This document shows, in pieces, positions 1 through 50,100 of a stretch of 64,000 bases of DNA. The notes under the pieces are model-generated. The model worked only from the letters and a program-made list of their open reading frames with translations. It searched no databases and had not been told where the DNA came from. Each line of letters begins with the position of its first letter. Position 1 is the stretch's first letter. The DNA is taken from NCBI GenBank assembly GCA_944372795.1, contig CALWAF010000004.1:1165-65164 (forward strand). The letters are read 5' to 3'. Made by a program: the position numbers and the translations under genes. The stretch is from an uncultured Clostridia bacterium. GTDB lineage: Bacteria > Bacillota > Clostridia > Christensenellales > CAG-917.

Positions 1-3000
1 TCGTCACGCTGTCAGGAATGGCGACGGAGGTCAAGCTGCTGCAACCATTGAAGGCAAAATCACCTATGCTCGTCACGCCGTCCCCAATAGTGACGGAGGT
101 CAAACTTCTGCAATTCCAAAAGGCATAATCGCCTATGCTCGTCACGCTGTCAGGAATGGTGACGGAGGTCAAACTTCTGCAACCCTCGAAGGCACGATTC
201 CCTATGCTCTCTCCGCTCGTCAATACAGCCGTTTGCAAACTGTCCTGCGGGATATAATCGATCGCAAGCGTCGGCATTGTCGCGGAAGTTATGTTGCTGC
301 ATCCTTCGAAAGCTCCCTGCCCTATGCTCGTCACGCTGTCAGGAATGGTGATCGAGGTCAAGCCGCTGCAACTCCTGAAAGCACCATACTCTATGCTCGT
401 CACGCTGTCAGGGATGGTAACAGAGGCCAAACTGCTGCAACCATCGAAGGCATAGTTCCCTATGCTCGTCACGTTATCAGGAATGATTACGGAGGTCAAG
501 CTACTGCAGCCGGAGAAGGTACTATACCCTATGCTCGTCACGCTGTCAGGGATGGTGACGGAGATCAGGCTGCTGCAACCCGAAAAAGCAGAAGAGCCTA
601 TGCTAGTCACGCTGTCAGGAATGGTGACGGAGATCAGGCTGCTGCAACCGGAGAAGGTACTACCCTCTATGCTCGTCACGCCGTTCCCGATGGTGACGGA
701 GGTCAAACCGCTGCAACCGGAGAAAGCACCGATTCCTATGCTCGCCACGCCATTCGGAATGGTGATGGAGGTCAGTCCGATGCAATCACGGAAGGCGTAA
801 TCCTCTATGTCGGTTACACTGTCTGGGATGGAGATAGATGTCAAGCTGCTGCAACCATAAAAAGCACGATTCCCTATGCTCTCTCCACTCGTCAATACAA
901 CCGTTTGCAAACTGTCTTGCGGAACGGCATCAATAGCAATAGTCGGCATTGTTGCGGAAGTTATGTTGATGCAACCATCGAAGGCATAGTTCCCCATGCT
1001 CGTCACGCCGTTCCCGATGGTGACGGAGGTCAAGCCGCTGCAACCATAGAAGGCATATTCCCCTATGCTCGTCACGCTGTCAGGAATCACAAGATCGGTC
1101 ACCAACTTGCCATTTAGGTACAAATCATGCGCATGGTATAGCGGGTTGGAAGCAGAGTCGCCAAAGTCTATCCCGCACCATGTGGCGATGTTTGTTATGT
1201 AGACCGCTGTCAATCCGCCGCAATCAAGGAAGGCATAACTCCCTATGCTCGTCACGCTGTCAGGAATGGTGACGGAGGCCAAACTGCTGCAACCATCGAA
1301 GGCATAGTTCCCTATGCTCGTCACGCTATCAGGAATGGTGACGAAGATCAAACTACTGCAGCCGGAGAAGGCACTATACCCTATGCTCGTCACGCCGTTC
1401 CCGATGATGACGGAGGTCAAGCCGCTGCAACCATAGAAAGCCGAATCCCCTATGATCGTCACGCCGTCCCCTATGGTGACGGAGGTCAAGCCGCTGCAAC
1501 CATAAAAAGCACGATTCCCTATACTCTCTCCGCTCGTCAACACAACCGTTTGCAAACTTTCTTGCGGGATGTAATCAATTGCAATGGTCGGCATTGTTGC
1601 GGAAGTTATGTTGATGCAACCCTCGAAGGCATAAATCCCTATGCTCGTCACTCCCTCCCCTATGGTGACGGAGGTCAAACTGCTGCAACCGTAGAAGGCC
1701 CAATCCCCTATGATCGTCACGCTATCGGGGATGGTGACGGAGGTCAGACTGTCGCAATAATAAAAGGCATGATCATCTATGCTCGTCCCTCCCGTAATGA
1801 CCACCTCTTGCAGCGACACCGGAATAGCATTAAGTTGATCATTATAACGCGAGACCCCGAAGATATACCCGAAGTGCGTATAGCTCGTCCCATCCTTTGT
1901 CAAACCGACAAAAGGCAATGTTATGCTTTCAAGCGAGCTACAATTCTCAAAGGCACCAAATCCTATACTCGTCACGCTGTCGGGGATGGTGGCGGAGGTC
2001 AACCCGCTGCAACCGGAGAAGGCATACCGACCTATGCTTGTCACGCTGTCAGGGATCACGAGATCGGTCACCAACTCGCCATTAAGATATAGGTTATGCG
2101 CATAGTAAAGCGGGTTGGAAGAAGAGTCGGCAAACTCTATCCCGCACCATGCGGCGATGTCTGTGATGTAGACCGCTGTCAATCCGCTGCAATCGGAGAA
2201 GGCATAATAATCTATGCTCGTCACGCTGTTCGGGATGGTGACGGAGGCCAAATCGTCGCAACCATCGAAGGCAGAATAGCCTATGCTCGTCACGCCGTCC
2301 CCAATGTTGACGAAGGTCAAGCTGCTGCAATACCAGAAGGCACGATCCCCTATGCTCGTCACGCCGTCAGGGATGGTGACGGAGGTCAGACTGCTGCAGC
2401 CGGAGAAGGCATAACCTCCTATGCTCGTCACCCCGTTCGGAATCACAAGATCCGTCACCAACTCTCCATTCAAATACAGGTTGTGGGCGTAGTAAAGCGG
2501 GTTGGAAGCAGAGCCGCCAAACCCTATTCCGCACCATGCAGCGATGTCTGTGATGTAGACCGCCGTCAAGCTGCTGCACTCCGAGAAGGCATTTCCTCCT
2601 ATGCTCGTCACGCTGTCAGGGATGGTGACGGAGGTCAAACTGCTGCAACCACTGAATGCATAATCATCTATGCTCGCCCCTCCTGTGATGACGACTTCTT
2701 TCAACGAAGCGGGAACATAGTCTGCATTGGAACTAGAACTCGAAGCGCCGAAGATATGCCCGAAGTGCGTGTCTTCCGTTCCATCATTTGTGGCGCCGAC
2801 AAAAGGCAATGTTATGCTTTCAAGCGAACTGCAATTCTGAACGGCATACTGTCCTATGCTAGTCACGCTGTCAGGAATGGTGATCGAGGTCAAGCCGCTG
2901 CAACCATAGAAGGCAGACCCTCCTATATTCGTCACGCCGTCCGGGATGGTGATCGAGGTCAAACTGCTGCAACCCGAAAAAGCAGAAGAGCCTATGTTAG

Positions 3001-5998
3001 TCACGCTGTCAGGAATGGTGACGGAGGTCAGGCTGCTGCAATTGCAGAAAGCCACATCCCCTATGCTCGTCACGCTGTCCGGGATGGTGACGGAGGTCAA
3101 ACTGCTGCAACCATAGAAGGCACGATTCCCTATGCTCTCTCCACTCGTCAATACAACCGTTTGCAAACTGTCTTGCGGGATTGCATCAATTGCAATGGTC
3201 GGCATTGTTGCGGAAGTTATGTTGATACATCCTTCGAAGGCAGAAGACCTTATGCGCGTCACGCTGTCGGGAATGGTGATGGAGGTCAGGCCGATGCAAT
3301 CACGGAAGGCGTAATCCTCTATGTCGGTTACACTGTCCGGGATGGAGATAGATGTAAGAGCACTGCGCCCGTCGAAGGCGGAATACCCTATGCTTGTCAC
3401 ACCGTGCGGGATGGTAATATCCCCTGCAACAGCAGCGGGGATGAAGATCAATTCCGTCTTCGCTTTGTTGTATAACACTCCGTCCACGCTCGCGTAGGCG
3501 GCATTCTTTGCATCGACCTTGATCGATGTCAATCCGGTGCAACCGGAGAAGGCGTCGCTCTCTATGTTTGTCACGCCCTCACCAATGTTCACGGAAGTCA
3601 AGCCGGTGCAATCCTCGAAGGCATAATCTCCAATCGTCCCTCCCGTGATGGTGACTTCTTTCAAGGAAGCGGGAACATAGTCGTCATTGTAACTAGAACT
3701 CGAAGCACCGAAGATATACCCGAAGTGTGTATAGCTCGTCCCATCCTTTGTCAAACCGACAAAAGGCAATGTTATGCTTTCAAGCGAACTGCAATTCTGG
3801 AAGGCATACTGCCCTATGCTCGTCACGCTGTCAGGAATGGTGACGGAGGTCATGCCGGTGCAGCCAGAGAAAGCACCCCGCGCTATGATAGTCACGCCGT
3901 TCCCAATAGTGACAGAACTCAAACCGATGCAGTCCTTAAATACATATTCCTCTATGATTGTCACGCTGTCGGGGATGGTGATTGACGTCAGTCCGCTGCA
4001 ACCATTAAAGGCATACCAACCTATGAACGTTACGTCGTTCGGGATGGTGATCGCTGCCAATTCGCTACGGCCCTCGAATTCATAAGTACCTATGCGCGTC
4101 ACTCCTTCAGGGATGACCACATGACCGCTGACCTTCAAGGGAACATACTCTATTTGATTGTTGCTGTACAAAACCCCGCTTTGAGAATAATAGCCCGGGT
4201 TATCTTCCGACACCGTTATGCGCTCCAACATCTCACAATCGGAAAATGCCGTGTCGGCAATATCCGTCACATATTCGGGGATATAAAGCTCCGTGACCGT
4301 GGTGTCTGTAACGCCCGTGATGTGGCAAACGGAGTCGGTGGCGGTAAAGATATATCCCGCCATCTCATCCTTCACCGTCCATTTCGCCGTAAGTTCCACG
4401 CCGTCTACGGGCACGGTGAATGTGTATTCGAGATCCGTCGTGCACAAGGTGTCGCCTTCGTACCAGCCGACGAAATCATAGCCGAGAGGCGAAACCGCCT
4501 GCACCGTCACCTCGGAGAGAACATCATATTCTCCCGTCCCGATGACCTTTGCGCCGTCCGTATCGGCGGTCAGGAGCACATTATAGCGGTCGATAGTGTA
4601 CTTGGCGTACACCGTGGTGTCATTGAGCAGCGTCCATCCTGACGTACTCTGTCCGTTTGCGTCCGTGATGCGGGTGCCGTCCGCAAGGAACCACCCGTCG
4701 AATTGATAATATTCCCGCACTGCCACAGGGAAGGTGAAGTCCGCGTCATACGTGACGGTGACCGTATTTGTCGACACACTGCCTTCCTCGGCATCCAATG
4801 TCACCGTATATTCGTTGGGCGTACAGATCGGATAAACGTGAGCGTCTTGTTTCACCATTCCGGTGCTGTTATATTCCTCGTCATCCACGTACCATCCGGT
4901 GAGTGTGTATCCGTCAAAAGCCCCATGTGCATATCCTTGTTGCCGATAGAACTCGGCCCATTGCTCTATTGTTTCGAGCTTCTGCCCGTCGGAGTAAAGG
5001 GGACCGAAGTACGGAGCATCAAACTGTATTGAGAAAAACACGTCCCCATACGGATCGTGCGCATACACTATGACGGGATATTGCTTGAACAGATTTACCG
5101 TATATACCCGTGCCGCCGTTCCGTCAGGGAAATATGTTTGCAGATAAAAGAGGTTGTCTCCGTCGGCAAAAGCTGCTTCCGACAGCGGCAGTTCCAACGA
5201 TATCTCTTCCGAACATGCCGCATCCTTGAACAGCCTCATCTCCACTCCCTCTTCAATTTGACAAATGCTGCCAAAATCTATGACGCTCGGCAGATCGGGG
5301 TGGTCAAATTCGACAAAAAGCTGAAGGGTCAGCTTCTTAACGTCCAGTTCGGCTGATTCGCGCATCCAGCCGGGAGAATACACAGCCTCTATCTCACCAG
5401 TAAGCCAGCGCGCGTAAAGGTCGAGAGAGGATGCGACCATGTTGTTGTCGAAATCCCATTTTTCGGTAAAGTTCGGATCGGTGTACCAACCATCCAAATA
5501 CTTTCCCGATTGCGGTTCGACCTCGGGAGGCACGACCAGATCGCCCGCATCAAGCTGCGTCTGACTGTCATAGATGTTGCCGTCGACCCTGAAAGTCACC
5601 GTAAACTTCGGCTCGCCGTCCTCTCCGCCGAATTGATCCATATAGAACGTGAGCGTGTTTCCTTCGATCTCCAACGTGACAGCCCCGGCGCCCGCATCGT
5701 ATCTTGCGATGCACGTCTGCGTGTCTCCGGAATAGAAGATCATCTCATAGGGCGACGTGATCTCATATGTACCGCTTATGCCTAGGCTCATCTCCCACGT
5801 CAGATCGGGATTGAGCTGCAACCACACGGGAGAAGACGCCGCCGGCATCACAGCATAATAACGTCCGTATGTGATGACGTCTTCATCGCCGGGCTCGCCA
5901 AGATCATCGGGGTCGTCTCCGTTGCAGGCGGCGAGGATGCCGACCGCCAGAACGAAGCAACACAACAGTGCCATCAACAAGAACAACTTCTTTTTCAT
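1..5998 (-). CDS. Giant cell-surface lipoprotein with N-terminal Listeria-Bacteroides (Flg_new-like) repeats and many BspA-type leucine-rich repeats (LRR_5). The 5' end is complete; the 3' end runs off the window (>=1,999 aa).
   Basis: A minus-strand ATG at 5996-5998 is preceded by GGAGGG. The translation starts MKKKLFLLMALLCCFVLAVGILAAC-NGDD, with a lipobox LAAC. The reverse complement of the ~69-nt DNA repeat reads ..AF.GCSSLTSVTIPDSVTSIG.. The GGT codon at 44-46 is in the same phase as the ATG. No complete minus ORF ending here appears in the track, which omits edge-truncated ORFs. The N-terminal part has GWYTD../FDGWF../FVGWYEGD motifs. Confidence 0.85.
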   Translation of the reverse strand, partial: MKKKLFLLMALLCCFVLAVGILAACNGDDPDDLGEPGDEDVITYGRYYAVMPAASSPVWLQLNPDLTWEMSLGISGTYEITSPYEMIFYSGDTQTCIARYDAGAGAVTLEIEGNTLTFYMDQFGGEDGEPKFTVTFRVDGNIYDSQTQLDAGDLVVPPEVEPQSGKYLDGWYTDPNFTEKWDFDNNMVASSLDLYARWLTGEIEAVYSPGWMRESAELDVKKLTLQLFVEFDHPDLPSVIDFGSICQIEEGVEMRLFKDAACSEEISLELPLSEAAFADGDNLFYLQTYFPDGTAARVYTVNLFKQYPVIVYAHDPYGDVFFSIQFDAPYFGPLYSDGQKLETIEQWAEFYRQQGYAHGAFDGYTLTGWYVDDEEYNSTGMVKQDAHVYPICTPNEYTVTLDAEEGSVSTNTVTVTYDADFTFPVAVREYYQFDGWFLADGTRITDANGQSTSGWTLLNDTTVYAKYTIDRYNVLLTADTDGAKVIGTGEYDVLSEVTVQAVSPLGYDFVGWYEGDTLCTTDLEYTFTVPVDGVELTAKWTVKDEMAGYIFTATDSVCHITGVTDTTVTELYIPEYVTDIADTAFSDCEMLERITVSEDNPGYYSQSGVLYSNNQIEYVPLKVSGHVVIPEGVTRIGTYEFEGRSELAAITIPNDVTFIGWYAFNGCSGLTSITIPDSVTIIEEYVFKDCIGLSSVTIGNGVTIIARGAFSGCTGMTSVTIPDSVTSIGQYAFQNCSSLESITLPFVGLTKDGTSYTHFGYIFGASSSSYNDDYVPASLKEVTITGGTIGDYAFEDCTGLTSVNIGEGVTNIESDAFSGCTGLTSIKVDAKNAAYASVDGVLYNKAKTELIFIPAAVAGDITIPHGVTSIGYSAFDGRSALTSISIPDSVTDIEDYAFRDCIGLTSITIPDSVTRIRSSAFEGCINITSATMPTIAIDAIPQDSLQTVVLTSGESIGNRAFYGCSSLTSVTIPDSVTSIGDVAFCNCSSLTSVTIPDSVTNIGSSAFSGCSSLTSITIPDGVTNIGGSAFYGCSGLTSITIPDSVTSIGQYAVQNCSSLESITLPFVGATNDGTEDTHFGHIFGASSSSSNADYVPASLKEVVITGGASIDDYAFSGCSSLTSVTIPDSVTSIGGNAFSECSSLTAVYITDIAAWCGIGFGGSASNPLYYAHNLYLNGELVTDLVIPNGVTSIGGYAFSGCSSLTSVTIPDGVTSIGDRAFWYCSSLTFVNIGDGVTSIGYSAFDGCDDLASVTIPNSVTSIDYYAFSDCSGLTAVYITDIAAWCGIEFADSSSNPLYYAHNLYLNGELVTDLVIPDSVTSIGRYAFSGCSGLTSATIPDSVTSIGFGAFENCSSLESITLPFVGLTKDGTSYTHFGYIFGVSRYNDQLNAIPVSLQEVVITGGTSIDDHAFYYCDSLTSVTIPDSVTIIGDWAFYGCSSLTSVTIGEGVTSIGIYAFEGCINITSATMPTIAIDYIPQESLQTVVLTSGESIGNRAFYGCSGLTSVTIGDGVTIIGDSAFYGCSGLTSVIIGNGVTSIGYSAFSGCSSLIFVTIPDSVTSIGNYAFDGCSSLASVTIPDSVTSIGSYAFLDCGGLTAVYITNIATWCGIDFGDSASNPLYHAHDLYLNGKLVTDLVIPDSVTSIGEYAFYGCSGLTSVTIGNGVTSMGNYAFDGCINITSATMPTIAIDAVPQDSLQTVVLTSGESIGNRAFYGCSSLTSISIPDSVTDIEDYAFRDCIGLTSITIPNGVASIGIGAFSGCSGLTSVTIGNGVTSIEGSTFSGCSSLISVTIPDSVTSIGSSAFSGCSSLISVTIPDSVTSIGYSTFSGCSSLTSVIIPDNVTSIGNYAFDGCSSLASVTIPDSVTSIEYGAFRSCSGLTSITIPDSVTSIGQGAFEGCSNITSATMPTLAIDYIPQDSLQTAVLTSGESIGNRAFEGCRSLTSVTIPDSVTSIGDYAFWNCRSLTSVTIGDGVTSIGDFAFNGCSSLTSVAIPDSVT

Positions 5999-6068
5999 GC
6001 TGCCCTCCAAACACGGGAAGCCCGCTTATAATATGATCGGATTTTTTAGGAATCTAATCAATATAAGA

Positions 6069-6097
6069 ATTATATATTTAATTTCTTGATAAGTCAA
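6069..6097 (-). promoter_or_regulatory. Sigma-70-type promoter for the LRR lipoprotein gene
   Basis: The minus strand reads TTGACT (6097-6092), a 17-nt spacer, then TATAAT (6074-6069). It lies about 70 nt upstream of the ATG at 5998 in an AT-rich stretch. Confidence 0.6.
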
Positions 6098-6139: not shown

Positions 6140-6263
6140 CTGACGCTCTCATTTGGATGAGATGCGCAAAAAAGCCCCGTTTTCGGCGAGGCGCGTACTA
6201 AACCGTACGTAACGAGCCGAAAACGGGGCTTTGACAAAGCAGGTCGCCAAATGAGAGCGTCAG
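6140..6263. repeat. Family T nested palindromic element, copy T1
   Basis: CTGACGCTCTCATTTGG ... CCAAATGAGAGCGTCAG forms the outer stem. The middle stem is GCCCCGTTTTCGGC/GCCGAAAACGGGGC and the core is CGTAC-TAAACC-GTACG. Bases 6260-6262 are the TGA stop of the TetR gene. Confidence 0.9.
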
Positions 6264-6853
6264 GCGCAGTATTCACATAGCGTCGTCTCCGCCAAAATAC
6301 TCAACTGCTGCTTGATGTCGTCTTGGGTGTAGTTGGGCTCTTCGAGCAGCCACCATTTGATGAGGGAGATGATGCCGCCGGCGAAGAATTCGGCGAGGAT
6401 GTCGGCGGGGATCTTGCCGGCTCCTTCTTTGGGCTTGGCTTTGGTGAGCCTGCCGACGATGTTGTGGGTGAGGATCTCGTGCACCTTGTCGAAGACGAGG
6501 GCGCTGTCCGCCTTGAGGATGATGGTCTTCAGGCGTTTGCGGTATTGCGCGAGGAAGTTGATGCCGAGGGACATGACCTCGTTGTAGTAAGTGATGAGGT
6601 CGCTCTCGCCGTGTGCCTGTTTGACCTGCTCGTGCAAGCCGTACATGACGTCGCTGATGCACTTGTCGAGCAGCTGATACTTATCCTCGAAATGGGTGTA
6701 GAAAGTGCCGCGATTGATGAGAGCGCGGTCGCATATGTCGATGACCGTGATGGAACCGAACGACTTCTCGTCGAGAAGCTCGTAGAACGCGTCGACGATC
6801 GCTTTCTGTGTGCGCTGGATGCGAAGATCCGTCTTGTTTGAATTCTTTGCCAT
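6260..6853 (-). CDS. TetR/AcrR family transcriptional regulator (197 aa)
   Basis: An internal ATG at 6853 of the 305-aa track ORF gives MAKNSNKTDLRIQRTQKAIVDAFYELLDEKSFGSITVIDICDRALINRGTFYTHFEDKY, a typical TetR N-terminal HTH. Confidence 0.9.
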   Translation of the reverse strand: MAKNSNKTDLRIQRTQKAIVDAFYELLDEKSFGSITVIDICDRALINRGTFYTHFEDKYQLLDKCISDVMYGLHEQVKQAHGESDLITYYNEVMSLGINFLAQYRKRLKTIILKADSALVFDKVHEILTHNIVGRLTKAKPKEGAGKIPADILAEFFAGGIISLIKWWLLEEPNYTQDDIKQQLSILAETTLCEYCA

Positions 6854-6864
6854 AAAGTCCTCCG

Positions 6865-7437
6865 TCAGCTTATGTGTTTTATTTTGATGAGCGAACTCTC
6901 TCCCTGCTCCGCACGGGCGAAGGGGGAGCGTACCCTGCGTGCGACCGCGCGGGCGGCGAGCGCCGCAAGCAGCACGGACAGCACGTCCTTTGCGATGTAA
7001 GGCACGGACACGGCGAGCGCCGAAGCGCCGAGCTCGCTGCCCGTAACGAGCGCATACTGCCCCACCCCCGCCATGTGGCACAACGCAAGCCCTGCCGCGG
7101 CAAGCAGCACGGATGCGGGACGTTTGAGTCCCTCGCCCGCCACGCCGCACAGCGCGGCAAGGGGGAGAAACCCCCACAAAAAGCCGCCCGTGACGCCGAT
7201 GAGTTTATAGAACCCGCCCGTGAATCCCGCGCATACGGGCGCGCCGCAGGCGCACAGCGCGAGGTATACCGCCACCGACGCCAGCGAGCACTTCCACCCG
7301 AGGAAGAACCCCGCGAACGCCACCGCGAACGTCTGCAGCGTGAGCGGGACTCCCGACGGGAGAGGTATGCTGATTTGCGACAAAACGGCGGTTAACGCGG
7401 CGAAAAGCGCAATATAAACCAGCTTTTTCGTCTTCAA
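6865..7437 (-). CDS. bioY: Biotin transporter S component BioY (190 aa)
   Basis: The start is TTG at 7437 with GAAAGG upstream. The protein is hydrophobic with about 6 TM segments: KKLVYIALFAALTAVLSQISIPLPSGVPLTLQTFAVAFAGFFLG...PYIAKDVL. The rest of the 583-aa track ORF is an antisense shadow of rocD. Confidence 0.85.
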   Translation of the reverse strand: MKTKKLVYIALFAALTAVLSQISIPLPSGVPLTLQTFAVAFAGFFLGWKCSLASVAVYLALCACGAPVCAGFTGGFYKLIGVTGGFLWGFLPLAALCGVAGEGLKRPASVLLAAAGLALCHMAGVGQYALVTGSELGASALAVSVPYIAKDVLSVLLAALAARAVARRVRSPFARAEQGESSLIKIKHIS

Positions 7438-11997: not shown

Positions 11998-12328
11998 AAG
12001 ACAGCCGTTCGGGTTTCCCCTCTCGCCCGCCCGTTTTGTGCAAGCCGTTTAATGTTTATGAAATGTGCTTAATTTTAATTTAAGTTTCAAAACCCACTGT
12101 TTAGTAGCATTCTGGCGCGAAAATTATATTTTTATGAAATTTTTTACAAGAAAAATTTTTATTTTATTTTTATTTAATAATGCCGTTTTACATTATAGAC
12201 AAAGAGAGCGATCTCTTCCCCACATAACTTGCACTTCGTCCGCTACACAGTGCAAGCCCCAAAAGCGAACTTCCCCATTCTATGCTGATTTCTTAAGCCC
12301 TTATAATACTCCGGCGGACGACCAAGAG

Positions 12329-12356
12329 CACACGCAAACGCGTGTGTTTTTGATTT
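12329..12356 (+). terminator. Orphan intrinsic-terminator-like hairpin
   Basis: CACACGC-aaac-GCGTGTG followed by TTTTTGATTT. It lies 330 nt downstream of the HK stop, just before the repeat island. Confidence 0.45.
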
Positions 12357-12380
12357 GCCGCGCCATGCGCGGAGATGCTT

Positions 12381-12758
12381 CGTGCTCAAACGTGAGAATA
12401 GGTGCAGTCCCCCGACATGGGAGTATTGTTCCCCCTCCTCCCCTTCGGGACTCCTCCCCCACTCGGAATAGAGTTCGCTCCTCCTAAAATGCGGGACTTA
12501 CTTTTTCATAAAGGCGCGAACCGCGCCTTTATGAAAACACCTCTTGAAAAAAGTTTGAGTCTCGCACTCACTTATTCAAGCAGCGAACAGTACTCACTGA
12601 ACATCGCTCGCGGGGAGAGGAGGGCGACTCGACGCGCACGAAGCCCGTGTCTACTTAACGCCTCATCTAGCTTGCGAGGTCGCATTCGCGCCGCGACTTG
12701 CAAGAGCGGGCACAAACGCCCGCTGTGCAAGTTTGGGTGAGCGGCGCGTAATTCCGTC
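12381..12758 (-). repeat. Family X interspersed repeat, copy X_A (~378 bp, carries a 27-bp hairpin insertion at 12507-12533)
   Basis: It is near-identical (as reverse complement) to 20821-21168 and 21407-21750, and collinear with 48204-48547. Confidence 0.85.
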
Positions 12759-12828
12759 TTTGAAATAGAATCGGCGTGCTCGGGGACGCTCCGAATAAGT
12801 GCACGTTTGACAGCTTCACAAAAACCCC

Positions 12829-13275: not shown

Positions 13276-13304
13276 ACGTTTCCTCGGCTCCTACTCCCCG
13301 CCCG

Positions 13305-13428
13305 CTGACGCTCTCATTTGGATGCAGAACGCGAAAGCACCCCTTTTCAGGCGAGGCGCGTACTAAACCGTACGTAACGAGCCTGAAAAGAGGTGCTGAC
13401 AAAGTTATGCGCCAAATGAGAGCGTCAG
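13305..13428. repeat. Family T nested palindromic element, copy T2
   Basis: It has the same termini as T1. The middle stem is GCACCCCTTTTCAGGC/GCCTGAAAAGAGGTGC. Bases 13425-13427 are the TGA stop of the CofE-like gene. Confidence 0.9.
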
Positions 13429-14609
13429 TCGGCGTAGTTGGTGAAATAGTTTTGAATATAAACTATAGGCGTCCCCTTGTCACCCGAGCCGGAGGTGAGA
13501 TCCGCGAGGGAACCGAGGAGGTCGGTGAGACGACGGGGGGTGGTGCCTTGGGATGCCTGCGAGGCGAAGAGGGAGGACGGCTTGGCTTTGATCATGTCTT
13601 GGATGGCGCGCTTGGCGTCCTCGCCGCGGAGATCGCCGATGGCGTTGTCGGCAAGATATTTGAGCTTGAGCTCGTTGGGAGTGCCGACGAGCCCGGAGGT
13701 GTAAGCGGGAGAGACGACGGGGTCGGCGAGCTCCCAGATCTTGCCGACGGGGTCCTTGAAGGCGCCGTCGCCGTAGACCATGACTTCCACCCTCTTGCCC
13801 GTCTTTTCGAGCAGAATGGACTGCACTCTTTCCACGAACTTGTCGCAGTCGCGGGGGAAGAGTTTGACGCTGTCGTCGGTGGCGAGATTGGAGCCGAGGA
13901 TGCCGTAGTCGGGGTTATAGCCGCTGCCATCGACGGGAGCGTTCATTATCTCGTGCATGGAGATGACCTTCTCCGCGCCCGCGGCAAGCAGAAGACGCTT
14001 GGTGCGGAAGCGGGTGTGGATGTCCGCGTTGATGACGACCTTGGTGTACTTCAGGATCTCCTGCGGACGGTTGGCGAGGATTATCTCGGTGCCCTCGCCC
14101 GCCATCTCCTTGTAAAGGGCGATATAGTCCATGCCCGTGAAGGGGTGCTTGACCTCTCCGAAGGTGTCGTAGACCTGTTTCTCGGTGAAGACGTCGGTGT
14201 AAGGATTGACGCCGTGCTCGTCGAGGGCGTCGATGTCCATAAGATGATTGCCCACCTCGTCGGAAGGATAGCTCAACATGATGACGAGCTTGTCCACGCC
14301 CTTGGAGATGCCTTTGAGCAGCATGGAGAAGCGGTTGCGGGAAAGGATGGGGAAGATGAGTCCCACCGTGCCGCCGCCCGTCTTCGCGCGGACGTCCTTT
14401 GCGATCTGATCCACCGTGGCGTAGTTGCCCTGCGCGCGCGCCACGACTGCCTCCGTCACGGCGAGCACGTCGCGGTCTTGGATGTCGAAACCGGTGCGGG
14501 AGTCGAACGCCGCCGCGAGCAGACTGTCCGCGACTATGGCGGCGAGATCATCGCCCTTCTTGATGATGGGAGCCTTGATACCTCTTGAGATCGTGCCGAC
14601 TGTAGCCAT
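13425..14609 (-). CDS. F420-0:gamma-glutamyl ligase (CofE)-family protein, function unknown in this context
   Basis: A 394-aa ORF starts at an ATG with a GGAGG RBS. The N-terminus MATVGTISRGIKAPIIKKGDDLAAIV and the motifs GILGSNLA and YGDGAFKDP resemble the PF01996 family as I recall it. The family assignment is from memory only. Confidence 0.55.
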   Translation of the reverse strand: MATVGTISRGIKAPIIKKGDDLAAIVADSLLAAAFDSRTGFDIQDRDVLAVTEAVVARAQGNYATVDQIAKDVRAKTGGGTVGLIFPILSRNRFSMLLKGISKGVDKLVIMLSYPSDEVGNHLMDIDALDEHGVNPYTDVFTEKQVYDTFGEVKHPFTGMDYIALYKEMAGEGTEIILANRPQEILKYTKVVINADIHTRFRTKRLLLAAGAEKVISMHEIMNAPVDGSGYNPDYGILGSNLATDDSVKLFPRDCDKFVERVQSILLEKTGKRVEVMVYGDGAFKDPVGKIWELADPVVSPAYTSGLVGTPNELKLKYLADNAIGDLRGEDAKRAIQDMIKAKPSSLFASQASQGTTPRRLTDLLGSLADLTSGSGDKGTPIVYIQNYFTNYAD

Positions 14610-20748: not shown

Positions 20749-20820
20749 TAAAGACAATAGGGCGATGAACAAATGATTATCGGATAGAGTGCGCCCAACT
20801 ACAATTAAACCCGGTTCGAA

Positions 20821-21349: not shown

Positions 21350-21406
21350 ATACGTTGACGAGCAGCTTGATAGGGCGCATTTGAACATGATGGAACCTCT
21401 TTCAAA

Positions 21407-21780: not shown

Positions 21781-21903
21781 CTGACGCTCTCATTTAGATG
21801 CAGAACGCGAAAGCGCCTCTGTCGAGAGGCGGAGCGTACCTTTAGTACGTGAGCATCTACGACAGAGGCGCTGACAAAGTTATGCGCTAAATGACAGCGT
21901 CAG
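21781..21903. repeat. Family T nested palindromic element, copy T3 (most diverged)
   Basis: CTGACGCTCTCATTTAG ... CTAAATGACAGCGTCAG, with middle stem GCGCCTCTGTCG/CGACAGAGGCGC. Bases 21900-21902 are the TGA stop of the lipoprotein gene. Confidence 0.9.
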
Positions 21904-24206
21904 TCGAGGTCTTTCCAGAGAGACTCATACGCCTCCCTATTATAAACGATCGTCTCATAGTGCTGGACACCGAAGGCATTGACCTTCTCTTCGTAGAGGG
22001 CGGACTGCTTGCCGGTGAGAAGGGTCTCCTCGATCTGCTGACGGATGGTGACGCAATCCTCAAGGGTGGGGGCATACTCGACGATGTAATCGAGGGGGAG
22101 CTCCTTGCCGCTGCCGTTGTCGGCAAAGGTGAGCGCCGTTTCGTTGCCCTCTGCGTCGATGCCGACGAGATTGTCGTCGAGGGGCACGCAGGTGGCGACA
22201 AGGATGAAGATGCCGGCATACGCACCGCTGGTGGTGCCGGACTCGATGAAGTTGTCGCCGAAGATGTAGAAGTTGCCCTCGGTGGCGCCTGCGCCGTCCG
22301 CGCGCTCATAGGACGCGGTGCCGTTTTCGATGAGTGCGCGCGCCTGTTTGGTGAAGGACTCGATATAGCCGGACTCTTCTCCCTCGGGAGTGATCATATA
22401 GCCGAGTCCGCCGTTGTTGGAATCGGAGGAAGTGCCGCCGGAGTCGTCACCCACGAGATAGAGCCACTCGGTGGCGACTTCGCGCATCCAATAGACGCCG
22501 AGCACGGGAGACATGCCGTCCGCGACAGCCTGTTTCACCGCGGAGAAGGAGGCATAGATCTGCTCCACTATGCCCGTCCGTTCCCCTCCGTTCGTGAAGG
22601 CGGGGACGGTGCCCGGGAGATACGCCATGGCGGGACATGCGGTGACGCCGTATTCGATGCTCGCCACCTTGGTGTCCTTATCGTAGACGAACTTCACGAT
22701 ATTGTTCCAATCCGCGCCCTCGTTCACCTCGTCCACGCACTCGTGGTTGGGACAGGTCATGGGATCGCAATCGGAGCCCGCCTCGCAGGAGTGACGGTCG
22801 CAGATGTAATCGGGGTCGTAATCGGGGTTGCTGACATTGACCTCGATGGCTTTGAGCAGTTTGTCGCGCTCCTTGGTGATGGTCGACTTGTCGCCGCTGT
22901 AGACGCCGTCTTCCACCATCTCGGTGAGCTTCGCAAGGTCGTCGTCGGGGAGCTGCAGCAGGATGTTGAGGACGAAGCCGTAGCCCTCATATTCGTGATA
23001 GTAAGAGGTCGCGAGGGCGTCGGTGAGCGCGGTCTCGTAAGAGGTGCGGTTGCCGCCGTAGGCCTCGATGTTCGCCTCCACCATGGAGTCGAAACGAGCC
23101 TCGATCTCCGCCTGACTGACGGTGCTCTGCTCGCCTATCTTGCGCTCGAGGCGGGTGATGAGCAGAGTCTTCATCTCGTTGTCGAGATAATATTGATAAC
23201 TCGTGCGCAGCTCGTCGAAGTCGTCCGCGACGTCTTCCACCGCGTCATCGAGATATTCCTTGAGATACTCTTCCCTGACCGCTTCGGAATAGGTGGAAAG
23301 GCTGTCAAGCTCCGCCTCGCCGCTCATGATGAGCGCGCGGTAACCCTCGGTGAGCAGACCGGAGTCGTCGAGTGCGCGGGGAGCGAGCGGATCCACTTCG
23401 CCGTCGGGATCGTAGTCCGCATCGGGGTCTTCCTCCTCCGCCTCACGCACGGGACGGGGCTCGAGATAGGGCTCCCACTTGGCGTAAAGAGTGATGCTCT
23501 TCGTGCCCTCTTCGAGGGTGACGGGCTTTGAGAAATCGAAGGCTTCGGTGCAATCTTTGTCGGTGTACCAGCCGTAGAAGGTGTAACCTTCGCGGGTGGG
23601 ATCGTCGGGTTCGTAAGCCACGGTGCCGTTCTTTATGCGCTGGCGTTCCACCGCGCTGCCCTTGCCGGAATCGAAACGGACGGTGATGGCGTCGGTGCCG
23701 CTGTATTCCTCATATTCGCCGCTGTCGGAACTGCCGCCCGTGGAGGGCTTGTTGGCGCTGATGAGCGTGCCAATGGCGGTGTCGATGGCGGAGAGGATGT
23801 CCTCATTGACGTTCTCGATGGCGCGGTTGAGCTCCGCAGACGAGAGCAGATCCTCCACCTTCACGTCCACGGCGGACGCGCCCGGGTCTTCCATCTTCAC
23901 AAGCTCGTCCTTGGCAAAGAGCACGAGAAGCTCGCGCTGGGCGAGAGACTGCAGCAAATAGTCCGCCGCCTGCTGATAGGTCATGCCGTAGTAGGCATTG
24001 TAGATGTAGGCGTAAGAGTTGAAACTGATCGCCAGCTCGAACTTGCGGATATCGGCGGTCTGCCCCGCATAAGAGACGGAGGCGACCACCTGATTGGCGT
24101 CGCGGTCTTCGTTGCGCGTGATGATGGCGTCGCAGCCGACGAGGGCTCCGATGCACACCGAAAGCGCGATGATGAGGACCAACAGAAGAGCAATTCTTTT
24201 TTTCAT
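21900..24206 (-). CDS. Lipoprotein (768 aa) with a SurA/PrsA-N-terminal-like chaperone region and a Listeria-Bacteroides repeat
   Basis: The ATG at 24206 gives MKKRIALLLVLIIALSVCIGALVGC, a lipobox. The segment ITVRFDSGKGS..GYTFYGWYTDKDCTEAFDF..LYAKW is a Flg_new-type repeat. The position downstream of mfd matches where prsA-like genes sit in Clostridia. No PPIase signature was recognised. Confidence 0.6.
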   Translation of the reverse strand: MKKRIALLLVLIIALSVCIGALVGCDAIITRNEDRDANQVVASVSYAGQTADIRKFELAISFNSYAYIYNAYYGMTYQQAADYLLQSLAQRELLVLFAKDELVKMEDPGASAVDVKVEDLLSSAELNRAIENVNEDILSAIDTAIGTLISANKPSTGGSSDSGEYEEYSGTDAITVRFDSGKGSAVERQRIKNGTVAYEPDDPTREGYTFYGWYTDKDCTEAFDFSKPVTLEEGTKSITLYAKWEPYLEPRPVREAEEEDPDADYDPDGEVDPLAPRALDDSGLLTEGYRALIMSGEAELDSLSTYSEAVREEYLKEYLDDAVEDVADDFDELRTSYQYYLDNEMKTLLITRLERKIGEQSTVSQAEIEARFDSMVEANIEAYGGNRTSYETALTDALATSYYHEYEGYGFVLNILLQLPDDDLAKLTEMVEDGVYSGDKSTITKERDKLLKAIEVNVSNPDYDPDYICDRHSCEAGSDCDPMTCPNHECVDEVNEGADWNNIVKFVYDKDTKVASIEYGVTACPAMAYLPGTVPAFTNGGERTGIVEQIYASFSAVKQAVADGMSPVLGVYWMREVATEWLYLVGDDSGGTSSDSNNGGLGYMITPEGEESGYIESFTKQARALIENGTASYERADGAGATEGNFYIFGDNFIESGTTSGAYAGIFILVATCVPLDDNLVGIDAEGNETALTFADNGSGKELPLDYIVEYAPTLEDCVTIRQQIEETLLTGKQSALYEEKVNAFGVQHYETIVYNREAYESLWKDLD

Positions 24207-24384
24207 ATACACTCCGTAGCGGTTATCACGGTTGATTGCAATAGTATGACCATTATACACATACGCGGGCGCGCCCGCAAGCATTTTTAGGATAAATGGG
24301 GAGTTTAACTCCCGAAAGAAAGGGAAAACGGCGGACATCCGCCGCCGTTTCGCACTCGTTTTCTCACTCCCGCGCCCGTCGGCG

Positions 24385-27300
24385 TCATGCCGCGCCGTCC
24401 GCAGAAGTGACCGCTTCCTCGAAAAACGCGATGAGTTTCGCGAGTTTTTCCGTGTTGGAAAGCCCTTTGACGTCAAAGACGAGGGAGGGCGGGACGGTGC
24501 TGGTGAGCACCACGTCCGCGCGGTGCGCCGCCACAGTCTTCATCAGCGTTTCGTCGCCGAACACGCCGGCGTCGGCGAAGAACACCCCCGCGCCGTTGCG
24601 GTTGAGCACCACGCGCGCCGCACCGAATCCGCGGGCGAGATTTTTGAGAAGCGCCACATCCACGAGGTTGACAAGGGCGTCGTCGGGCGGACCGTAGACC
24701 TCCGAGAGTTCGGAGATGACCGCGTTCCTCTCCGCCGCCGTGGCGACGGACGCCATGCGCTTATAGATGCGCAGCTTGTCCCTGCCGCTGACATATCCGT
24801 CGCGGATGTAGGCGGGCACATCCACCTTCATCTCCACTTCGCGCGTTTCCTCCGGTTTTTTGCCCGTGCGCATCTCTTCCACCGCCTCGTTGAGAAGCTC
24901 GATGTACATCTCGTAACCCACGCGCTCGATGTGTCCGTGCTGCTCGGCGCCGAGCAGGGTGCCCGCTCCCCTGATGGAAAGGTCGGAGAGCGCCACGCGG
25001 AACCCGCTGCCTATCTCGGTGTTTTCCATCAGCGCGCGCAGCCTCTTTTCGGCATCGGGAGTCAGCGCCCCGTTCTCGGGCACGGTGAAATAGGCGTGGG
25101 CGAGCACGCCTCTCCTCCCCACTCTGCCGCGCAGCTGATAGAGCTGCGAAAGCCCGAATCTGCCCGAGTCCACCACGATGAGCGTGTTGGCGTCGGGGAG
25201 GTCTATGCCGTTTTCGATGATGGTGGTGGCGACCAACACGTCGAATTTTTTCTCGTAAAACGCCGCGATACGCCTCTCGAGCTCCCCTCCCGTCATCTGC
25301 CCGTGGGCGGTGACGATGCCCGTCTCGTCGGGCAGCATCGCTTTGAGCTTTGCGGCGAAAGGCTCCAGCGCCGCGATGTCGTTGAGCAGGATGAGAGTCT
25401 GTCCTCCCCTCGCGCATTCCCTAGTCACCGCGTCCGCGACGAGCGCGTCGGAATAGGGGATGACGTAGGTCTGCACGGGCAGTCTGCCTCTGGGCGCGGT
25501 CTCAAGGAGCGATATGTCCCTCACGCCCGACAGCGCCATGTTGAGGGTGCGCGGGATGGGCGTCGCGGAAAGGGTGAGCACGTTGACAAGGGGATTGCGG
25601 GCTTTGAGCAACTCCTTGTGCTCCACTCCGAAACGCTGTTCCTCGTCCAGCACCAGCAACCCCAGATTTTTGAATTCCACGCCCTTGGAGAGCACCTTGT
25701 GCGTCGCGATCGCCATATACAGCGTGCCGTCCGCGAGCCGCCTTATCGTTTCGGCGTTTTCGGCGGAACTTTGCAGCCTAGTGAGCAGGGCGCATTCTAT
25801 GCCGAAGGGCTCCAGCCTCTTCACGAGGTTCTCGTGGTGCTGGCGGGCAAGGATGGTGGTGGGAGCGACAAGCACCGCCTGCCGCGCGTCCATCACGGTC
25901 TTGAACATGGCGCGGAAAGCGACCTCCGTCTTGCCGAAGCCGACGTCCCCCACCAGCAGCCTGTCCATGATCTTGCCCTCTTCCATGTCCTTCTTGACGG
26001 CGGCGATGGCTTTGAGCTGATCGGCGGTCTCTTCGTACTCGAAAGCGTCCTCGAACTCCTGCTGCCACACGGTGTCGGGAGCGTAGACGTGCCCCCTCTT
26101 CTTCTCCCTCTCGGCGTAGAGTTTCAGAAGATCGACGGCGAGTTTGCGGACGGACTTTTTCACCTTCTCCTTTTCCCGCGCGAACTCCTTTCCGCCTATC
26201 TTGTTGAGCTTGGGATGTTCCTCGCCGACGAATTTCTGGAGGTTGTCCGTCTGGTCGGTGGCAACGTAAAGGACGTCGCCGTCGCGGTAGCGGATGACGA
26301 CGTATTCCTTCTCGAACTCCCCCGCCTTCATTATGGTGGTGCCTTCGCACAAACCTATGCCGTGCACACGATGCACCACATAATCACCCGCTTTCGGTGC
26401 GGTAAACTGCGTTTTCGGCAAACTGATGCCGCTTCCGCGCCGTTTGCCCACACACTCCGAAACGCCTATGACGGCGAGTTTTTCCGCGGGATAGACAAAG
26501 CCCGTTTCGATGGAGAGCGGGGTGACCAGCACGGATGCCGCGCCCTCTCCGTCTGCGGAATACTCCGAGCCGACGTCCTGTTGCGCGAGGCTCTCCCGCA
26601 CGCTCTTTGCCCGCTCGGGCGAACCCGTCGCGATGAGCACCTTGAACCCGCTCAATACGAAGTTTTTAAGGTCCTGCCCTATGCTGTCGGGCGCAAGGTA
26701 ATACTTGGTCACGGGACGGGTCTTGGGGGTGAGCAGCTTGGTGGGCGAGAAGAGGGGGTTGCCCAGCTCCAGCGCGGTGAAAGACACCTTGCGCGCGAGC
26801 ATTATCCTGCGCCTGACCTCGCTAGGCACAAAGAGGGCGTCCGAGTGCTCCGGGAGGATCTCCCCCGCATTCGCGAGAGGCTCTATCCTTCCCCTGAATT
26901 CCTTGGTGAGGATGTCTATCTTGTCCGCTATGATCTTGGGCTCGTCGAAGACGACCACGGGCGGGATGCCCGCGGACGAGTCGCCGAAACAATCGAAAAG
27001 GAATGAGGTGTTGTCCTCCGAAAACACCAGCGCCCACGCGAGTTCTGCGGGAGCGGCGCCCGCCCTCACCCTGTCCGAAAGGGAGGCGGCGACGGGATTG
27101 CCGCCGTGCGCCGAGAGCGCAGCGCGCACCCTCTCCGCATCCTTTCGGGAAAAGAGCACGTCCGTCGCGGGATAGACCGTGATCGCCTCCCGCTCGTCCA
27201 CCGAAAGCATGCTGGAGAGGTCTATGCTCTTGATGCTCTCTATTATCTCGTCAAAAAAGTTGATGCGGTAGGCTCCGCTCACCGTGCAGACGTCGAGGAT

Positions 27301-48547: not shown

Positions 48548-48633
48548 TCCAAAACAGGATTCGTCGTGTTCGATCATACTCCGAACAAGAAAACGTCGTG
48601 TCGGGGGACGTCACGCACTAACGTCCCGTCGTC

Positions 48634-48757
48634 CTGACGCTCTCATTTGGATGCAGAACGCGAAAGCACCCCTTTTCAGGCGAGGCGCGTACTAAACCGT
48701 ACGTAACGAGCCTGAAAAGGGGTGCTGACAAAGTTATGCGCCAAATGAGAGCGTCAG
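48634..48757. repeat. Family T nested palindromic element, copy T4
   Basis: It is almost identical to T2. Bases 48754-48756 are the TGA stop of the EIIC-like gene. Confidence 0.9.
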
Positions 48758-50100
48758 GAGAGTTTTTGGTCGCCGAAGCGTATCCACCCCCACCTCCTCA
48801 TCACCTCCGAAATGATGAGACACAGGACGGCAGGGATGACGACGCAGCAGAGGACGATGCCGAGGGCGAGTTTCCATTGGGGAAGACCGACTTCGACGGA
48901 GGCGTCGATGGCGCCGAAGATGCCGACGAGACCGGAGGTGCCCATGCCGCCGCCGACGGCGTTGCAACGCAAGCCGAAGACGCAGGTGGAAAGGGGTCCC
49001 ACGACTACGCTGGCGAGGATGGGCGGGAGCATGATCTGCGGATGACGCATGAGATTGGGGATCTGCAACATGCTGGTGCCTATACCCTGCGCGATGAGCC
49101 CGCCCCACTTGTTTTCGCGAAAGGACTGCACGGCGAAACCGACCATATGCGCGGAGCACCCCACCATGGACGCGCCGCCCGCAAGAAGTATGGCATCGTA
49201 GGTGGCGAAGTCCACCTCGCCAGCGGCGTACGCAGTGATGACGGGGGTGGCGACGGCAAGCCAGATGGCTGCCGAAGAAGTGGGCAGGGTGAGAAGTATG
49301 CCCATGACGACGGCGATGATGATGCCCATGACGGCGGGGGTCGCCGCCGTGGCGAGAGCGACGCCCTCGCCGATGAGATCGACAAGTTTGATGAAGGGCC
49401 ACGCCGCCCACACCGCGAACAGACAGACGACGAACATCACGAGGGGGACGACGACGATGTCCACCTTGGTCTTGCCCGCGACGAGCCTGCCGAGTTCCAC
49501 CGCGATGACGGAAACGACATAGGCGCCGATGGGGTTGCCGGGAGCGGCAGGCGCCACGCCCGAGAGAACGTCGTTGACGGCAAGCGTGGTGAAATCGCCG
49601 AGGAAACCGTCCGTGACGGCATTGGCGAACGCTCCCACGAAACCCGCCACCGCTGCGGTGAACATGACGAGCTTGGGCGCCTTCAACGCATGGGCGATCC
49701 CTATGCCGATGCCCGCGCCCATGAGCATCTTGGCAAGATTCGCGACGGCGGTGACCCCGCCGCCCACGATGAGAGCGGCATCGGTGCCCGCAGACGTGAT
49801 CCACGCACCGATCTGCCCGAGGATGGTGCCCGCGATGAGGGTGCAGAACAGCCCCTGCGACATGCCCGTAAACGCGTCTATAAAATATCTGACGAAACCC
49901 TTTTTGAGAAGATAGAAAATATATTTCCACGAAAACTCGGGTTTTATCTCGTCGTTTTTATTGTTTGAAGTGTCGGTTGTGTCGGCAACGTCGGTCGCGC
50001 TTTCTTTCTCGCCGTCAACCTCGCCTGCGGGGAGCTCCCCTTGCGGAAGGCGTCTGTACTCGGTGTCGTCCGCAAGCATCTTGTCAAATTCGGCGCTCAT
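48754..50100 (-). CDS. PTS EIIC-like polytopic membrane protein (PTS_EIIC_2-type), no EIIA/EIIB partner in the window
   Basis: The product is 448 aa, with an acidic N-terminal ~55 aa followed by Gly-rich hydrophobic repeats (GMSQGLFCTLIAGTILGQIG.., GIGIGIAHAL.., GGGMGTSGLVGIFGA). The family assignment is from memory and of moderate confidence. Confidence 0.55.
   Translation of the reverse strand: MSAEFDKMLADDTEYRRLPQGELPAGEVDGEKESATDVADTTDTSNNKNDEIKPEFSWKYIFYLLKKGFVRYFIDAFTGMSQGLFCTLIAGTILGQIGAWITSAGTDAALIVGGGVTAVANLAKMLMGAGIGIGIAHALKAPKLVMFTAAVAGFVGAFANAVTDGFLGDFTTLAVNDVLSGVAPAAPGNPIGAYVVSVIAVELGRLVAGKTKVDIVVVPLVMFVVCLFAVWAAWPFIKLVDLIGEGVALATAATPAVMGIIIAVVMGILLTLPTSSAAIWLAVATPVITAYAAGEVDFATYDAILLAGGASMVGCSAHMVGFAVQSFRENKWGGLIAQGIGTSMLQIPNLMRHPQIMLPPILASVVVGPLSTCVFGLRCNAVGGGMGTSGLVGIFGAIDASVEVGLPQWKLALGIVLCCVVIPAVLCLIISEVMRRWGWIRFGDQKLS

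Follow-up and report, generated by a model that had tools for sequence, protein, structure and literature searches.

A 64,000-nt stretch of contig CALWAF010000004.1 from an uncultured Clostridia bacterium (hereafter the window) contains four copies of a nested palindrome, here called element T, in each of which a TGA near one end of the element, at its bases 2–4, serves as the stop codon of the gene upstream of it. T is a dispersed family that has recently spread, is confined to a narrow lineage of Clostridia, and is missing from sister species. With moderate confidence, we propose that it represents a new family of interspersed, non-autonomous repeats that form hairpins, of the same kind as MITEs (miniature inverted-repeat transposable elements), REPINs and BOX elements, whose members integrate at stop codons through a CTGA end and bring a terminator-like hairpin with them.

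The four copies (T1 to T4, Table 1) had been described as co-oriented in an earlier note, made from the letters of this DNA, and were recovered at the same positions by end matching and with a covariance model, which found no fifth copy within the 64-kb window. Their internal orientation is identical. On the minus strand the copies start with CTGACGCTCTCATTTGG, and the 3′ end is the exact reverse complement of this start. The common start given in the note holds for T1, T2, and T4; T3 departs from it, beginning with CTGACGCTGTCATTTAG, in which the G at position 9 mismatches its partner. Matches to the 17-nt end occur 8 times in the window at up to 3 mismatches, where 0.2 would be expected. In all four copies, bases 2–4 of the element (TGA) form the in-frame stop codon of the upstream gene, with zero spacer and in a fixed phase, although the genes are unrelated; here, the observation that was central to the note stands in full. 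Since Pfam domains reach to within a few residues of the ends of the four encoded proteins, we take these to be full length. Random non-coding placement would meet a gene end about 45 times in 11,400 positions of the window, so that the location of four out of four copies on gene ends is not due to chance. Of the names that the note had given to these genes, TetR, CofE-like, and EIIC agree with the Pfam domains, and "SurA-like lipoprotein" is left without support: in this 858-residue protein, Pfam finds only the Flg_new repeat.

The same use of the stop codon was found in other genomes. When one genome of each species was scanned for exact matches to the double-end pattern, no more than four loci came up (L001–L004), located in three metagenome-assembled genomes (MAGs) of uncultured Clostridia. 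Open reading frames (ORFs) of 216, 475, and at least 118 codons end in the TGA of T in L002, L003, and L004, respectively. In L001, a 492-codon ORF stops at its own TGA, and T begins at the next base (..gac TGA followed directly by CTGACG..). Further copies were obtained by translating the open frames of T and searching a protein collection, which yielded 24 metagenomic "proteins" that read through T; the contigs of six of them were retrieved and their loci were read. Among the T copies associated with these baits, the one in L007 closes an AP_endonuc_2 gene, one in L021 closes ftsZ (a gene end that T also occupies in L003), and that in L022 closes an ORF of 189 residues. Bystander copies on the same set of contigs close a DivIVA-like gene (L009 at 19032) and a gene for a 499-residue FAD-dependent protein (L021 at 17643). 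Overall, 15 distinct gene ends were collected: the TGA of T is the stop codon at 11 of these, T follows with zero spacer at one, and it is non-abutting at three, while its orientation is sense at all 15. Ten sites were found without reference to ORFs, namely the four in the window, L001–L004, and the two bystanders. Nine of these share their TGA with the gene, and the tenth (L001) lies directly after a native TGA.

Such a distribution could in principle arise without targeting, if T inserted at random or at CTGA-like microhomology and persisted only where it is harmless. This would mainly be at gene ends in the sense orientation, since T would end transcription there and, in one of its frames, presents a stop at once. 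Some features of the window agree with such a survival filter: TGA is the commonest stop codon (25 of 38 called genes), C-TGA ends 9 of the 38, and only three same-strand CTGA sites lie within 100 nt after a stop, so that insertions confined to sense 3′ untranslated regions (UTRs) would mostly hit stops. Read-through fusions exist as well (P0016, P0169, P0010, and P0015). However, about 34 CTGA sites in the window are fully non-coding, versus 9 at stops, and if T were placed on any tolerated CTGA (P = 0.21 per site), finding nine of ten sites on stops would have a probability of about 6e-6. Moreover, three of the four window copies lie in convergent intergenic regions of 1.3–1.8 kb that should tolerate an insertion anywhere, yet the first copy always touches the stop. 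One frame of T would lengthen the protein by just seven residues, and none of the copies was observed in it. Because the placement is this precise and strictly oriented, and the spacers this permissive, random insertion followed by selection alone seems to us distinctly improbable. The CTGA is also retained in array-internal copies of T that do not lie at stops, and is therefore part of the element itself.

In the four read-through "proteins" mentioned, P0010, P0015, P0016, and P0169, a real gene (rubrerythrin-like, PyrB-like, membrane protein, or EIIC) runs through T, usually where the 5′ end of the element is deleted or variant; these are C-terminal extensions or annotation artefacts. Protein databases thus come to contain false ORFs and fused C-termini that stem from T, and 24 such "proteins" were seen here.

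Comparison with relatives that lack the element indicated what T has replaced. In contigs L010–L020, from relatives of about 90% protein identity, neither nhmmer nor the covariance model detected a copy of T. CofE-like homologues at graded levels of identity all end in ..NYA(x)D/E, and the T-free orthologues of both CofE and the Flg_new protein end at the same codon as the genes in the window (Table 1), from which it follows that the TGA of T occupies the position of the native stop, with neither truncation nor extension. The Flg_new tails WKNLG and WKDMK are equal in length to WKDLD in the window. In the closer relative (L014–L017), both empty sites already read C-TGA. The native 3′ UTR and terminator of these T-free loci are gone where T is present. 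The outcome of this comparison, which the note had also suggested, is that the native stop was replaced and the length of the protein left unchanged in both genes. We could thus reject the idea that an ORF runs on by chance to the TGA of T, as the T-free orthologues end at the same residue. Truncation of the C-terminus by insertion was likewise rejected for CofE and Flg_new, and the end of EIIC differs by no more than 1–2 residues from its naturally variable relatives. A 10-nt match between the 3′ flank of T2 and the native terminator of L014 belongs to another repeat and was not used.

Two further observations concern the CofE site. Synteny breaks exactly at T2: the T-free relatives (L010–L016) have SpoIIE, TilS, and other genes after CofE, and the window species has a repeat-filled spacer followed by a convergent HisKA/response-regulator pair. 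In addition, L014–L017, which lack T, carry a 17-nt tandem duplication (CGCACGGCACAAAGCGG, twice) directly after the TGA of CofE (L014 11186–11219). This duplication stands exactly where the window lineage has T, which may be a coincidence or a footprint.

While the position of T is fixed, its interior is not. Contigs from numerous samples encode a CofE protein identical to that of the window, and ten of these loci were read. Their coding sequences differ by 7–23 of 1182 nt (0.6–2%), and all ten have T on the stop codon with the same 17-nt ends. The interiors at this single site (loops, inner stem, and flanks of the apex) nonetheless fall into at least five unrelated types, which recur at other genes and in other genomes, with loops and stems reassorting. 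Misassembly was rejected as their source, as long-read contigs, with names in the tig, ctg, and flye styles, carry the variants and all contigs rejoin the same downstream genes; the agreement of three long-read CofE contigs further shows that the variants are not a graph artefact. Similarly, T4 is present at the EIIC gene of strains L034–36, and L037, with a 99% identical EIIC protein, reads ..caa gcg ctc TAA AACGCCGCCATTTTG... The T variant of L037 is thus another one, with CTAA as its start, and the protein ends in AL instead of KLS. The ftsZ genes of L003 and L021 are 88% identical, yet their T end variants differ. Different members of the family have thus repeatedly converted gene ends or occupied them anew. 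That T2 and T4 are 99% identical at unrelated genes points to a recent spread of the family. The swapping of interiors is best explained by recombination between copies via conserved blocks of 17–33 nt. These hypervariable interiors at fixed loci constitute ready-made strain markers.

The convergent spacer between CofE and HisKA (window 11998–13304, compared with L024–L033) is variable as well: in strains that do not differ in their CofE protein, its length ranges between 524 and 1579 nt. Only its last ~400 nt are conserved, and it is a hotspot for the gain and loss of repeat modules.

Variation of this type at one locus is also what would be expected of a folded recombination site, such as the attC site of integrons, at which a site-specific recombinase exchanges 3′ cassettes. 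T resembles such a site in that its structure is conserved where its sequence varies, in that it sits at the 3′ end of an ORF and overlaps the stop, and in that both interiors and downstream modules differ between strains. A Phage_integrase gene was moreover found about 0.9 kb from one copy of T (L022). Against this stand the ends of T (CTGACG...CGTCAG), which lack the attC core RYYYAAC/GTTRRRY; the neighbors, which are housekeeping genes in conserved synteny rather than a promoterless cassette array; the arrays of T, which have no ORFs between copies; and the lack of an integrase at the other loci and of intI. An attC site is defined by R′′/L′′...L′/R′ boxes with such cores, at the 3′ end of promoterless cassettes arrayed next to intI, and T does not fit this definition. 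We therefore consider this explanation highly improbable.

All copies share a nested fold. The outer stem measures 17 bp and has conserved ends (CTGA...TCAG) together with conserved ATTTGG/CCAAAT blocks. An internal loop region, partly paired, separates it from an inner stem of 16 bp, the sequence of which differs between copies, and the apex is formed by an invariant mini-hairpin, CGTAC-N6-GTACG. The predicted folding energies of the window copies are −66 to −76 kcal/mol (z-scores of −10 to −13). Structural alignment of 16 full copies, 123–126 nt in length, gave a consensus of 43 pairs in three helices: outer (including the partly paired "loop" region), inner, and apical (CGTAC/GTACG). Pairing is maintained in 97.5% of cells, and both sides have changed in 26 of the 43 pairs. 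None of 500 shuffles reached these values, and sliding the partners reduced pairing to 34–51%. Even the ends covary, as seen in variants starting with CTGACGCTCTC.., CTGAGGGCACT.., CTGAACGCCGCC.., and CCGAGGGTGCT.., in which the flanking CTGA and ATTTGG blocks are kept. Covariance-model scores were about 140 bits in the sense and about 75 bits in the antisense direction, so that the orientation of T is well defined.

A U-rich tract is found only 3′ of the inner stem, and only on the sense strand. In T1, the stem is followed by TTTTTT and was flagged by a terminator scan. In the other variants the tract is weaker (CUUUCGCGUUCU or UUUUCCUUGUUCU), consisting of 3–4 U and then a U-rich stretch, with a 30-nt apical insert, and the scan gave no match. 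The note had argued from the absence of a U-tract that T is not a canonical terminator. This argument fails for T1 and has to be softened for the other copies, whereas the reading of T as a 3′-end or terminator element, which the note also offered, is compatible with the strict orientation, the sense-only U-rich tract, and the missing native terminators of the relatives. Judging from sequence, the inner stem and the U-rich tract probably act as a terminator or as a hairpin that protects the 3′ end. The distance of 43 bp that the note gave between T1 and the −35 box of the next gene agrees with our measurement (Table 1). This next gene, an ORF of more than 2000 codons (window 2–6010, minus strand) that runs off the window, is made up of 69-nt (23-residue) tandem repeats and has a lower GC content at third codon positions than other genes; T1 and the strong promoter lie just upstream of it.

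These features raise the question of whether T serves its host, as a 3′-end mRNA structure (a terminator, a stabilizer, or a device coupled to translation termination) that was spread and homogenized by recombination, without dedicated transposition. In such a device, the 5′ arm of the outer stem, 17 nt long, would be covered and opened by a ribosome that has stopped at the TGA. This length would match that of the mRNA segment inside a ribosome during termination, as judged from the general size of the ribosome footprint. The strict sense orientation, the U-rich tract that every variant has 3′ of its inner stem, the loss of native terminators where T is present, and the strong covariation all agree with a function in RNA, and the mosaic reassortment of modules fits with recombination. 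Among the non-Watson-Crick cells, read on the sense strand, there are 16 G-T but only 6 A-C, a weak hint of selection on that strand. Recombination alone, however, does not explain near-identical copies at unrelated genes with zero spacer and fixed phase. In addition, more than 96% of the pairs are Watson-Crick and both strands fold, as would be the case for a palindrome at the DNA level; the absence of T does no apparent harm to relatives of about 90% identity; a parasitic character is suggested by the tandem arrays and by other nested repeats; and there is no match in Rfam. Taken together, we consider a primarily host-serving structure unlikely.

Returning to integration at stop codons by a non-autonomous repeat, T would enter the 3′ ends of genes in the sense orientation only. 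Its terminal C-TGA would merge with, or replace, the last base and the stop codon of the gene, so that the protein would change by about one residue at most, and the inner stem and U-rich tract of T would displace the original 3′ UTR with its terminator. After insertion, interiors would be exchanged between copies by recombination, giving rise to mosaic variants and tandem arrays. Head-to-tail arrays were indeed observed in L001, L007, L008, L021, and L023, interleaved with other repeats (the mini-hairpin H and family X, see below). Direct repeats of 2–9 nt were looked for around the 16 full copies, and no target duplication was found; L001 has a doubling (CTGA CTGA) on its left side only. The lack of a target duplication, the conserved terminal tetranucleotide, the conservation of structure over sequence, and the strand specificity together suggest a route through single-stranded or hairpin DNA, or copy-choice. 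This might involve an enzyme that acts on folded single-stranded DNA (HUH, RAYT, or IS200-like), or copy-choice via CTGA microhomology, rather than classical DDE cut-and-paste transposition. Where the note had spoken of a hairpin repeat that targets or replaces stop codons, position and replacement are borne out by 11 of the 15 sites, by two T-free orthologous sites, and by the turnover of variants at ftsZ, EIIC, and CofE; a transposition mechanism may be envisaged as above.

Several results weigh against this proposal. No transposase, RAYT, or other such enzyme was found among the 34 ORFs of the window or the called genes of the retrieved loci. No within-species empty site was caught, for which reason we infer the mobility of T from its distribution only. 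The junction expected for an excised or circular form (CGTCAGCTGACG) was not found in any locus. The long perfect terminal inverted repeat is atypical of IS200/IS605-type ends, the U-tract is weak in most variants, and arm-to-arm repair within the palindrome could mimic selected covariation. Three sites, all found through the baits, deviate from the rule: in L008, the ends of T are CCGAGGG.., a TGA is lacking, and T lies 22 nt after the stop of the iPGM gene; in L023, a distance of 20 nt separates T from a PNPase ORF whose end appears premature, falling inside the S1 domain; and in L009 at 10496, T has lost part of its 5′ end, so that the ORF of a membrane protein continues through it. Finally, a double-end scan of JGI metagenomes retrieved only an element with an unrelated interior, a 124-nt palindrome in two contigs of 49% GC (L005 634–757 and L006 2025–2148), whose 15-nt termini are the same as those of T3 (CTGACGCTGTCATTT). 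Its interior is AT-rich and has three TGTCAG sub-repeats; together with the shared ends, these would equally fit an inverted repeat recognized by a protein, as for a classical transposase. This palindrome may be a distant relative of T that is mobilized by a related enzyme, and its TGA may close a short ORF (..YQKKI before the stop).

More specifically, T may be a mobile hairpin that homes to stop codons: it would recognize C-TGA at the end of a translated ORF, integrate seamlessly and in one direction only, and substitute the stop and the whole 3′ UTR, after which lineages of the element would compete for the same gene ends and displace one another there. For recognition, the 3′-terminal TCAG might pair with a target in single-stranded form, or some enzyme might be involved. 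We put this forward tentatively and with some doubt. If T indeed homes to stops, then a selfish or semi-domesticated repeat rewrites the stop, 3′ UTR, and terminator of many genes with the protein left untouched. This would point to a very precise, new mechanism of integration, and would be a mode of target-site selection that has not been described for bacterial mobile DNA. The compact module of a stop plus a hairpin could also serve as a portable 3′ end in engineering.

The host range of T appears to be narrow. Its hosts are uncultured gut Clostridia of about 60% GC, and the nearest named proteins come from Christensenellales MAGs, such that the lineage is probably Christensenellales. No match to T was found in a plasmid collection (blastn, distant mode) or in viral contigs. 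Likewise, the window gave no Rfam match at the gathering threshold, the best matches in E-value mode on T2 being irrelevant and far below it, so that the Rfam search proposed in the note assigned T to no family.

The claim of novelty in the note was nevertheless overstated, as there is precedent for repeats that supply stop codons. In Streptococcus pneumoniae ATCC 700669, 36 genes have a stop codon that lies in a BOX repeat, with no evident truncation (Croucher et al. 2011, PMC3049150). Like T, BOX elements are intergenic repeats of Firmicutes that are modular or mosaic, form long hairpins via complementary ends, vary in length between strains at a given locus, and have an uncertain mobilizing enzyme (PMC3049150). 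By description (their sequences were not compared), however, BOX is a boxA-boxB(n)-boxC mosaic, whereas T is a single self-paired unit. BOX occurs in mitis-group streptococci and S. suis, in contrast to the Clostridia lineage of about 60% GC that hosts T. The stop codon of T, furthermore, lies in a symmetric inverted repeat, is used at about 75–90% of sites, and is always in the sense orientation, and the inner stem of T is hypervariable yet complementary. SPRITE, a dispersed repeat resembling a Rho-independent terminator, with a long duplex and a U-rich tract, is likewise enriched downstream of genes and has been proposed to be a mobile terminator (PMC3049150). No supply of stop codons has been reported for SPRITE, and the terminator-like module of T is nested within an outer stem of 17 bp.

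With the REP/REPIN-RAYT system, T shares hairpins, a conserved terminal tetranucleotide, conservation of structure over sequence, clusters downstream of genes, and the absence of target duplication (PMC3116915, PMC3733652). REPs and REPINs are thought to move as folded single strands by means of an HUH tyrosine transposase (Bertels & Rainey 2011, PMC3116915; Di Nocera et al. 2013, PMC3733652). The survey of Di Nocera et al. (2013, PMC3733652) reported no REPs in Firmicutes. REP units are imperfect palindromes of 20–40 nt with a 5′ GTAG or CGTC tag, and often form inverted dimers, whereas T is one unit of 124 nt, has CTGA/TCAG ends, and is not accompanied by a RAYT gene in the window or the retrieved loci. 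Membership of the CGTC-tagged REP superfamily was rejected, as the CGTC of T is inside its paired end rather than in an unpaired tag, and the architecture is unlike that of REPs. To our knowledge, REPs do not sit in phase on stop codons.

MITEs such as Correia/NEMIS, RUP, and ERIC are comparable to T in their size of 100–150 nt, terminal inverted repeats, hairpin RNA, effects on termination or processing, and occasional ORF fusions (Delihas 2008, PMC2229807). With 17-nt perfect inverted ends and a length below ~300 bp, T has the size and the ends of a MITE. Classical MITEs, however, duplicate their target site, which is TA for Correia and RUP, and their ends are conserved in sequence and match a parent insertion sequence (IS) (PMC2229807), whereas for T the 16 full copies showed no duplication, no parent IS was seen in the window or the retrieved loci, and the ends covary. 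The IS200/IS605 elements (IS608, ISDra2) and PATEs also lack target duplications, are specific for strand and orientation, insert beside a fixed tetra- or pentanucleotide, and depend on DNA hairpins. Their hairpins, however, are separate and subterminal at each end, unlike the one long inverted repeat of T, and their target motif lies outside the element, whereas the CTGA of T, which stands at the 5′ junction, is mirrored at its 3′ end and kept in array-internal copies; no tnpA was found in the window or the retrieved loci. T is a new family and a distinct variant within the known class of bacterial hairpin repeats, lacking defining features of REPs, MITEs, and attC sites and matching no Rfam family. 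It is set apart by the stop codon in its symmetric end, the in-phase use of this codon at most sites, its strict orientation, and the rapid turnover of its interior at fixed gene ends.

Table 1. Coordinates of element T, of the genes that it closes, and of associated features. Positions are those of the window unless a locus is named.
Feature	Position	Strand	Remarks
T1, nested palindrome, 124 nt	6140..6263	−	TGA 6262–6260 is the stop of the TetR gene; inner stem followed by TTTTTT
T2, 124 nt	13305..13428	−	TGA 13427–13425 is the stop of the CofE-like (F420_ligase) gene
T3, 123 nt, divergent interior variant	21781..21903	−	TGA 21902–21900 is the stop of the gene for the 858-residue Flg_new-repeat protein
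T4, 124 nt, 99% identical to T2	48634..48757	−	TGA 48756–48754 is the stop of the PTS EIIC gene
TetR-family regulator ORF (TetR_N, TetR_C_8)	6260..7177	−	Tail CEYCA; true start probably internal
CofE-like F420-0:gamma-glutamyl ligase family gene (F420_ligase)	13425..14609	−	Tail TNYAD; ends in TGA of T2
Flg_new (Listeria-Bacteroides repeat) protein gene	21900..24476	−	Tail WKDLD; ends in TGA of T3
PTS_EIIC_2 gene	48754..50100	−	Tail DQKLS; ends in TGA of T4
Sigma-70-like promoter of next gene	6069..6097	−	TTGACT, 17 nt, TATAAT; 42–43 nt beyond T1
CofE end, T-free relatives	L014–L017		..aac tac gcc gac TGA CGCACGG.., then ordinary terminator
CofE end, T-free relatives	L010–L013		..gac TAA..
Flg_new end, T-free relatives	L014–L017		..ctc ggc TGA AAC.., then ordinary terminator; tail WKNLG
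Flg_new end, T-free relatives	L010–L013		..atg aaa TAA..; tail WKDMK
Family X copy	12540..12800	−	Core ..AGACGGAATTACGCGCCGCTCA..; usually follows T arrays, same orientation
Family X copy	~48330–48560	−	
Family X copy	47700–47830	−	
Family X copy	20800–21050	+	
Mini-hairpin H copy	L025 ~5285–5320		
Mini-hairpin H copy	L034 ~4620–4660		
Mini-hairpin H copy	L021 ~10355–10395		

The remainder of the window is ordinary chromosome, encoding Mfd, Pth, GlnS/GltX-type and AspS-type synthetases, PFOR, and transketolase. T is, however, accompanied by other repeats. Family X comprises at least 250 nt with a core of ..TCTTTCGAAGACGGAATYACGCGCCGCTCA.., and was also found in L002–L004, L007–L009, L021, L023, L024, L030, and L033. 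It contains an internal hairpin that varies yet stays complementary (ACTTGCA..TGCAAGT versus GCGTTCA..TGAACGC). Family X was absent from the T-free relatives and gave no match in Rfam. The mini-hairpin H, of ~35 nt (GGGG(T/C)CCCCGCCGAAAGTATTTTCGGTGGGG), occurs in three independent copies at one point of the 3′ loop of T (GCGCA^TCTCAT), and may represent another small element, inserted in T, that prefers a site of its own.

In addition, an 87-nt tandem repeat with GGGGnCCCC...AAAAATCGGAGATTTTT hairpin motifs is present in three units at window positions 59922–60182 and in one at 12895–12981, and is related to a spacer hairpin between T copies in L007, L021, and L033. A direct repeat of 239 nt, 90% identical between its two copies (window 20808–21046 and 21394–21632), is located within the spacer of 1.8 kb that follows T3. 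The sequence ..TATCCCGCATTTTAGGAGGACTGAACTCTTCCCGAGTGGGGGAGG.. is part of this repeat, which is found again in L022 and downstream of T4. T repeats also fragment the metagenome assemblies of this gut lineage, and many contigs with these genes are only 2–13 kb long.

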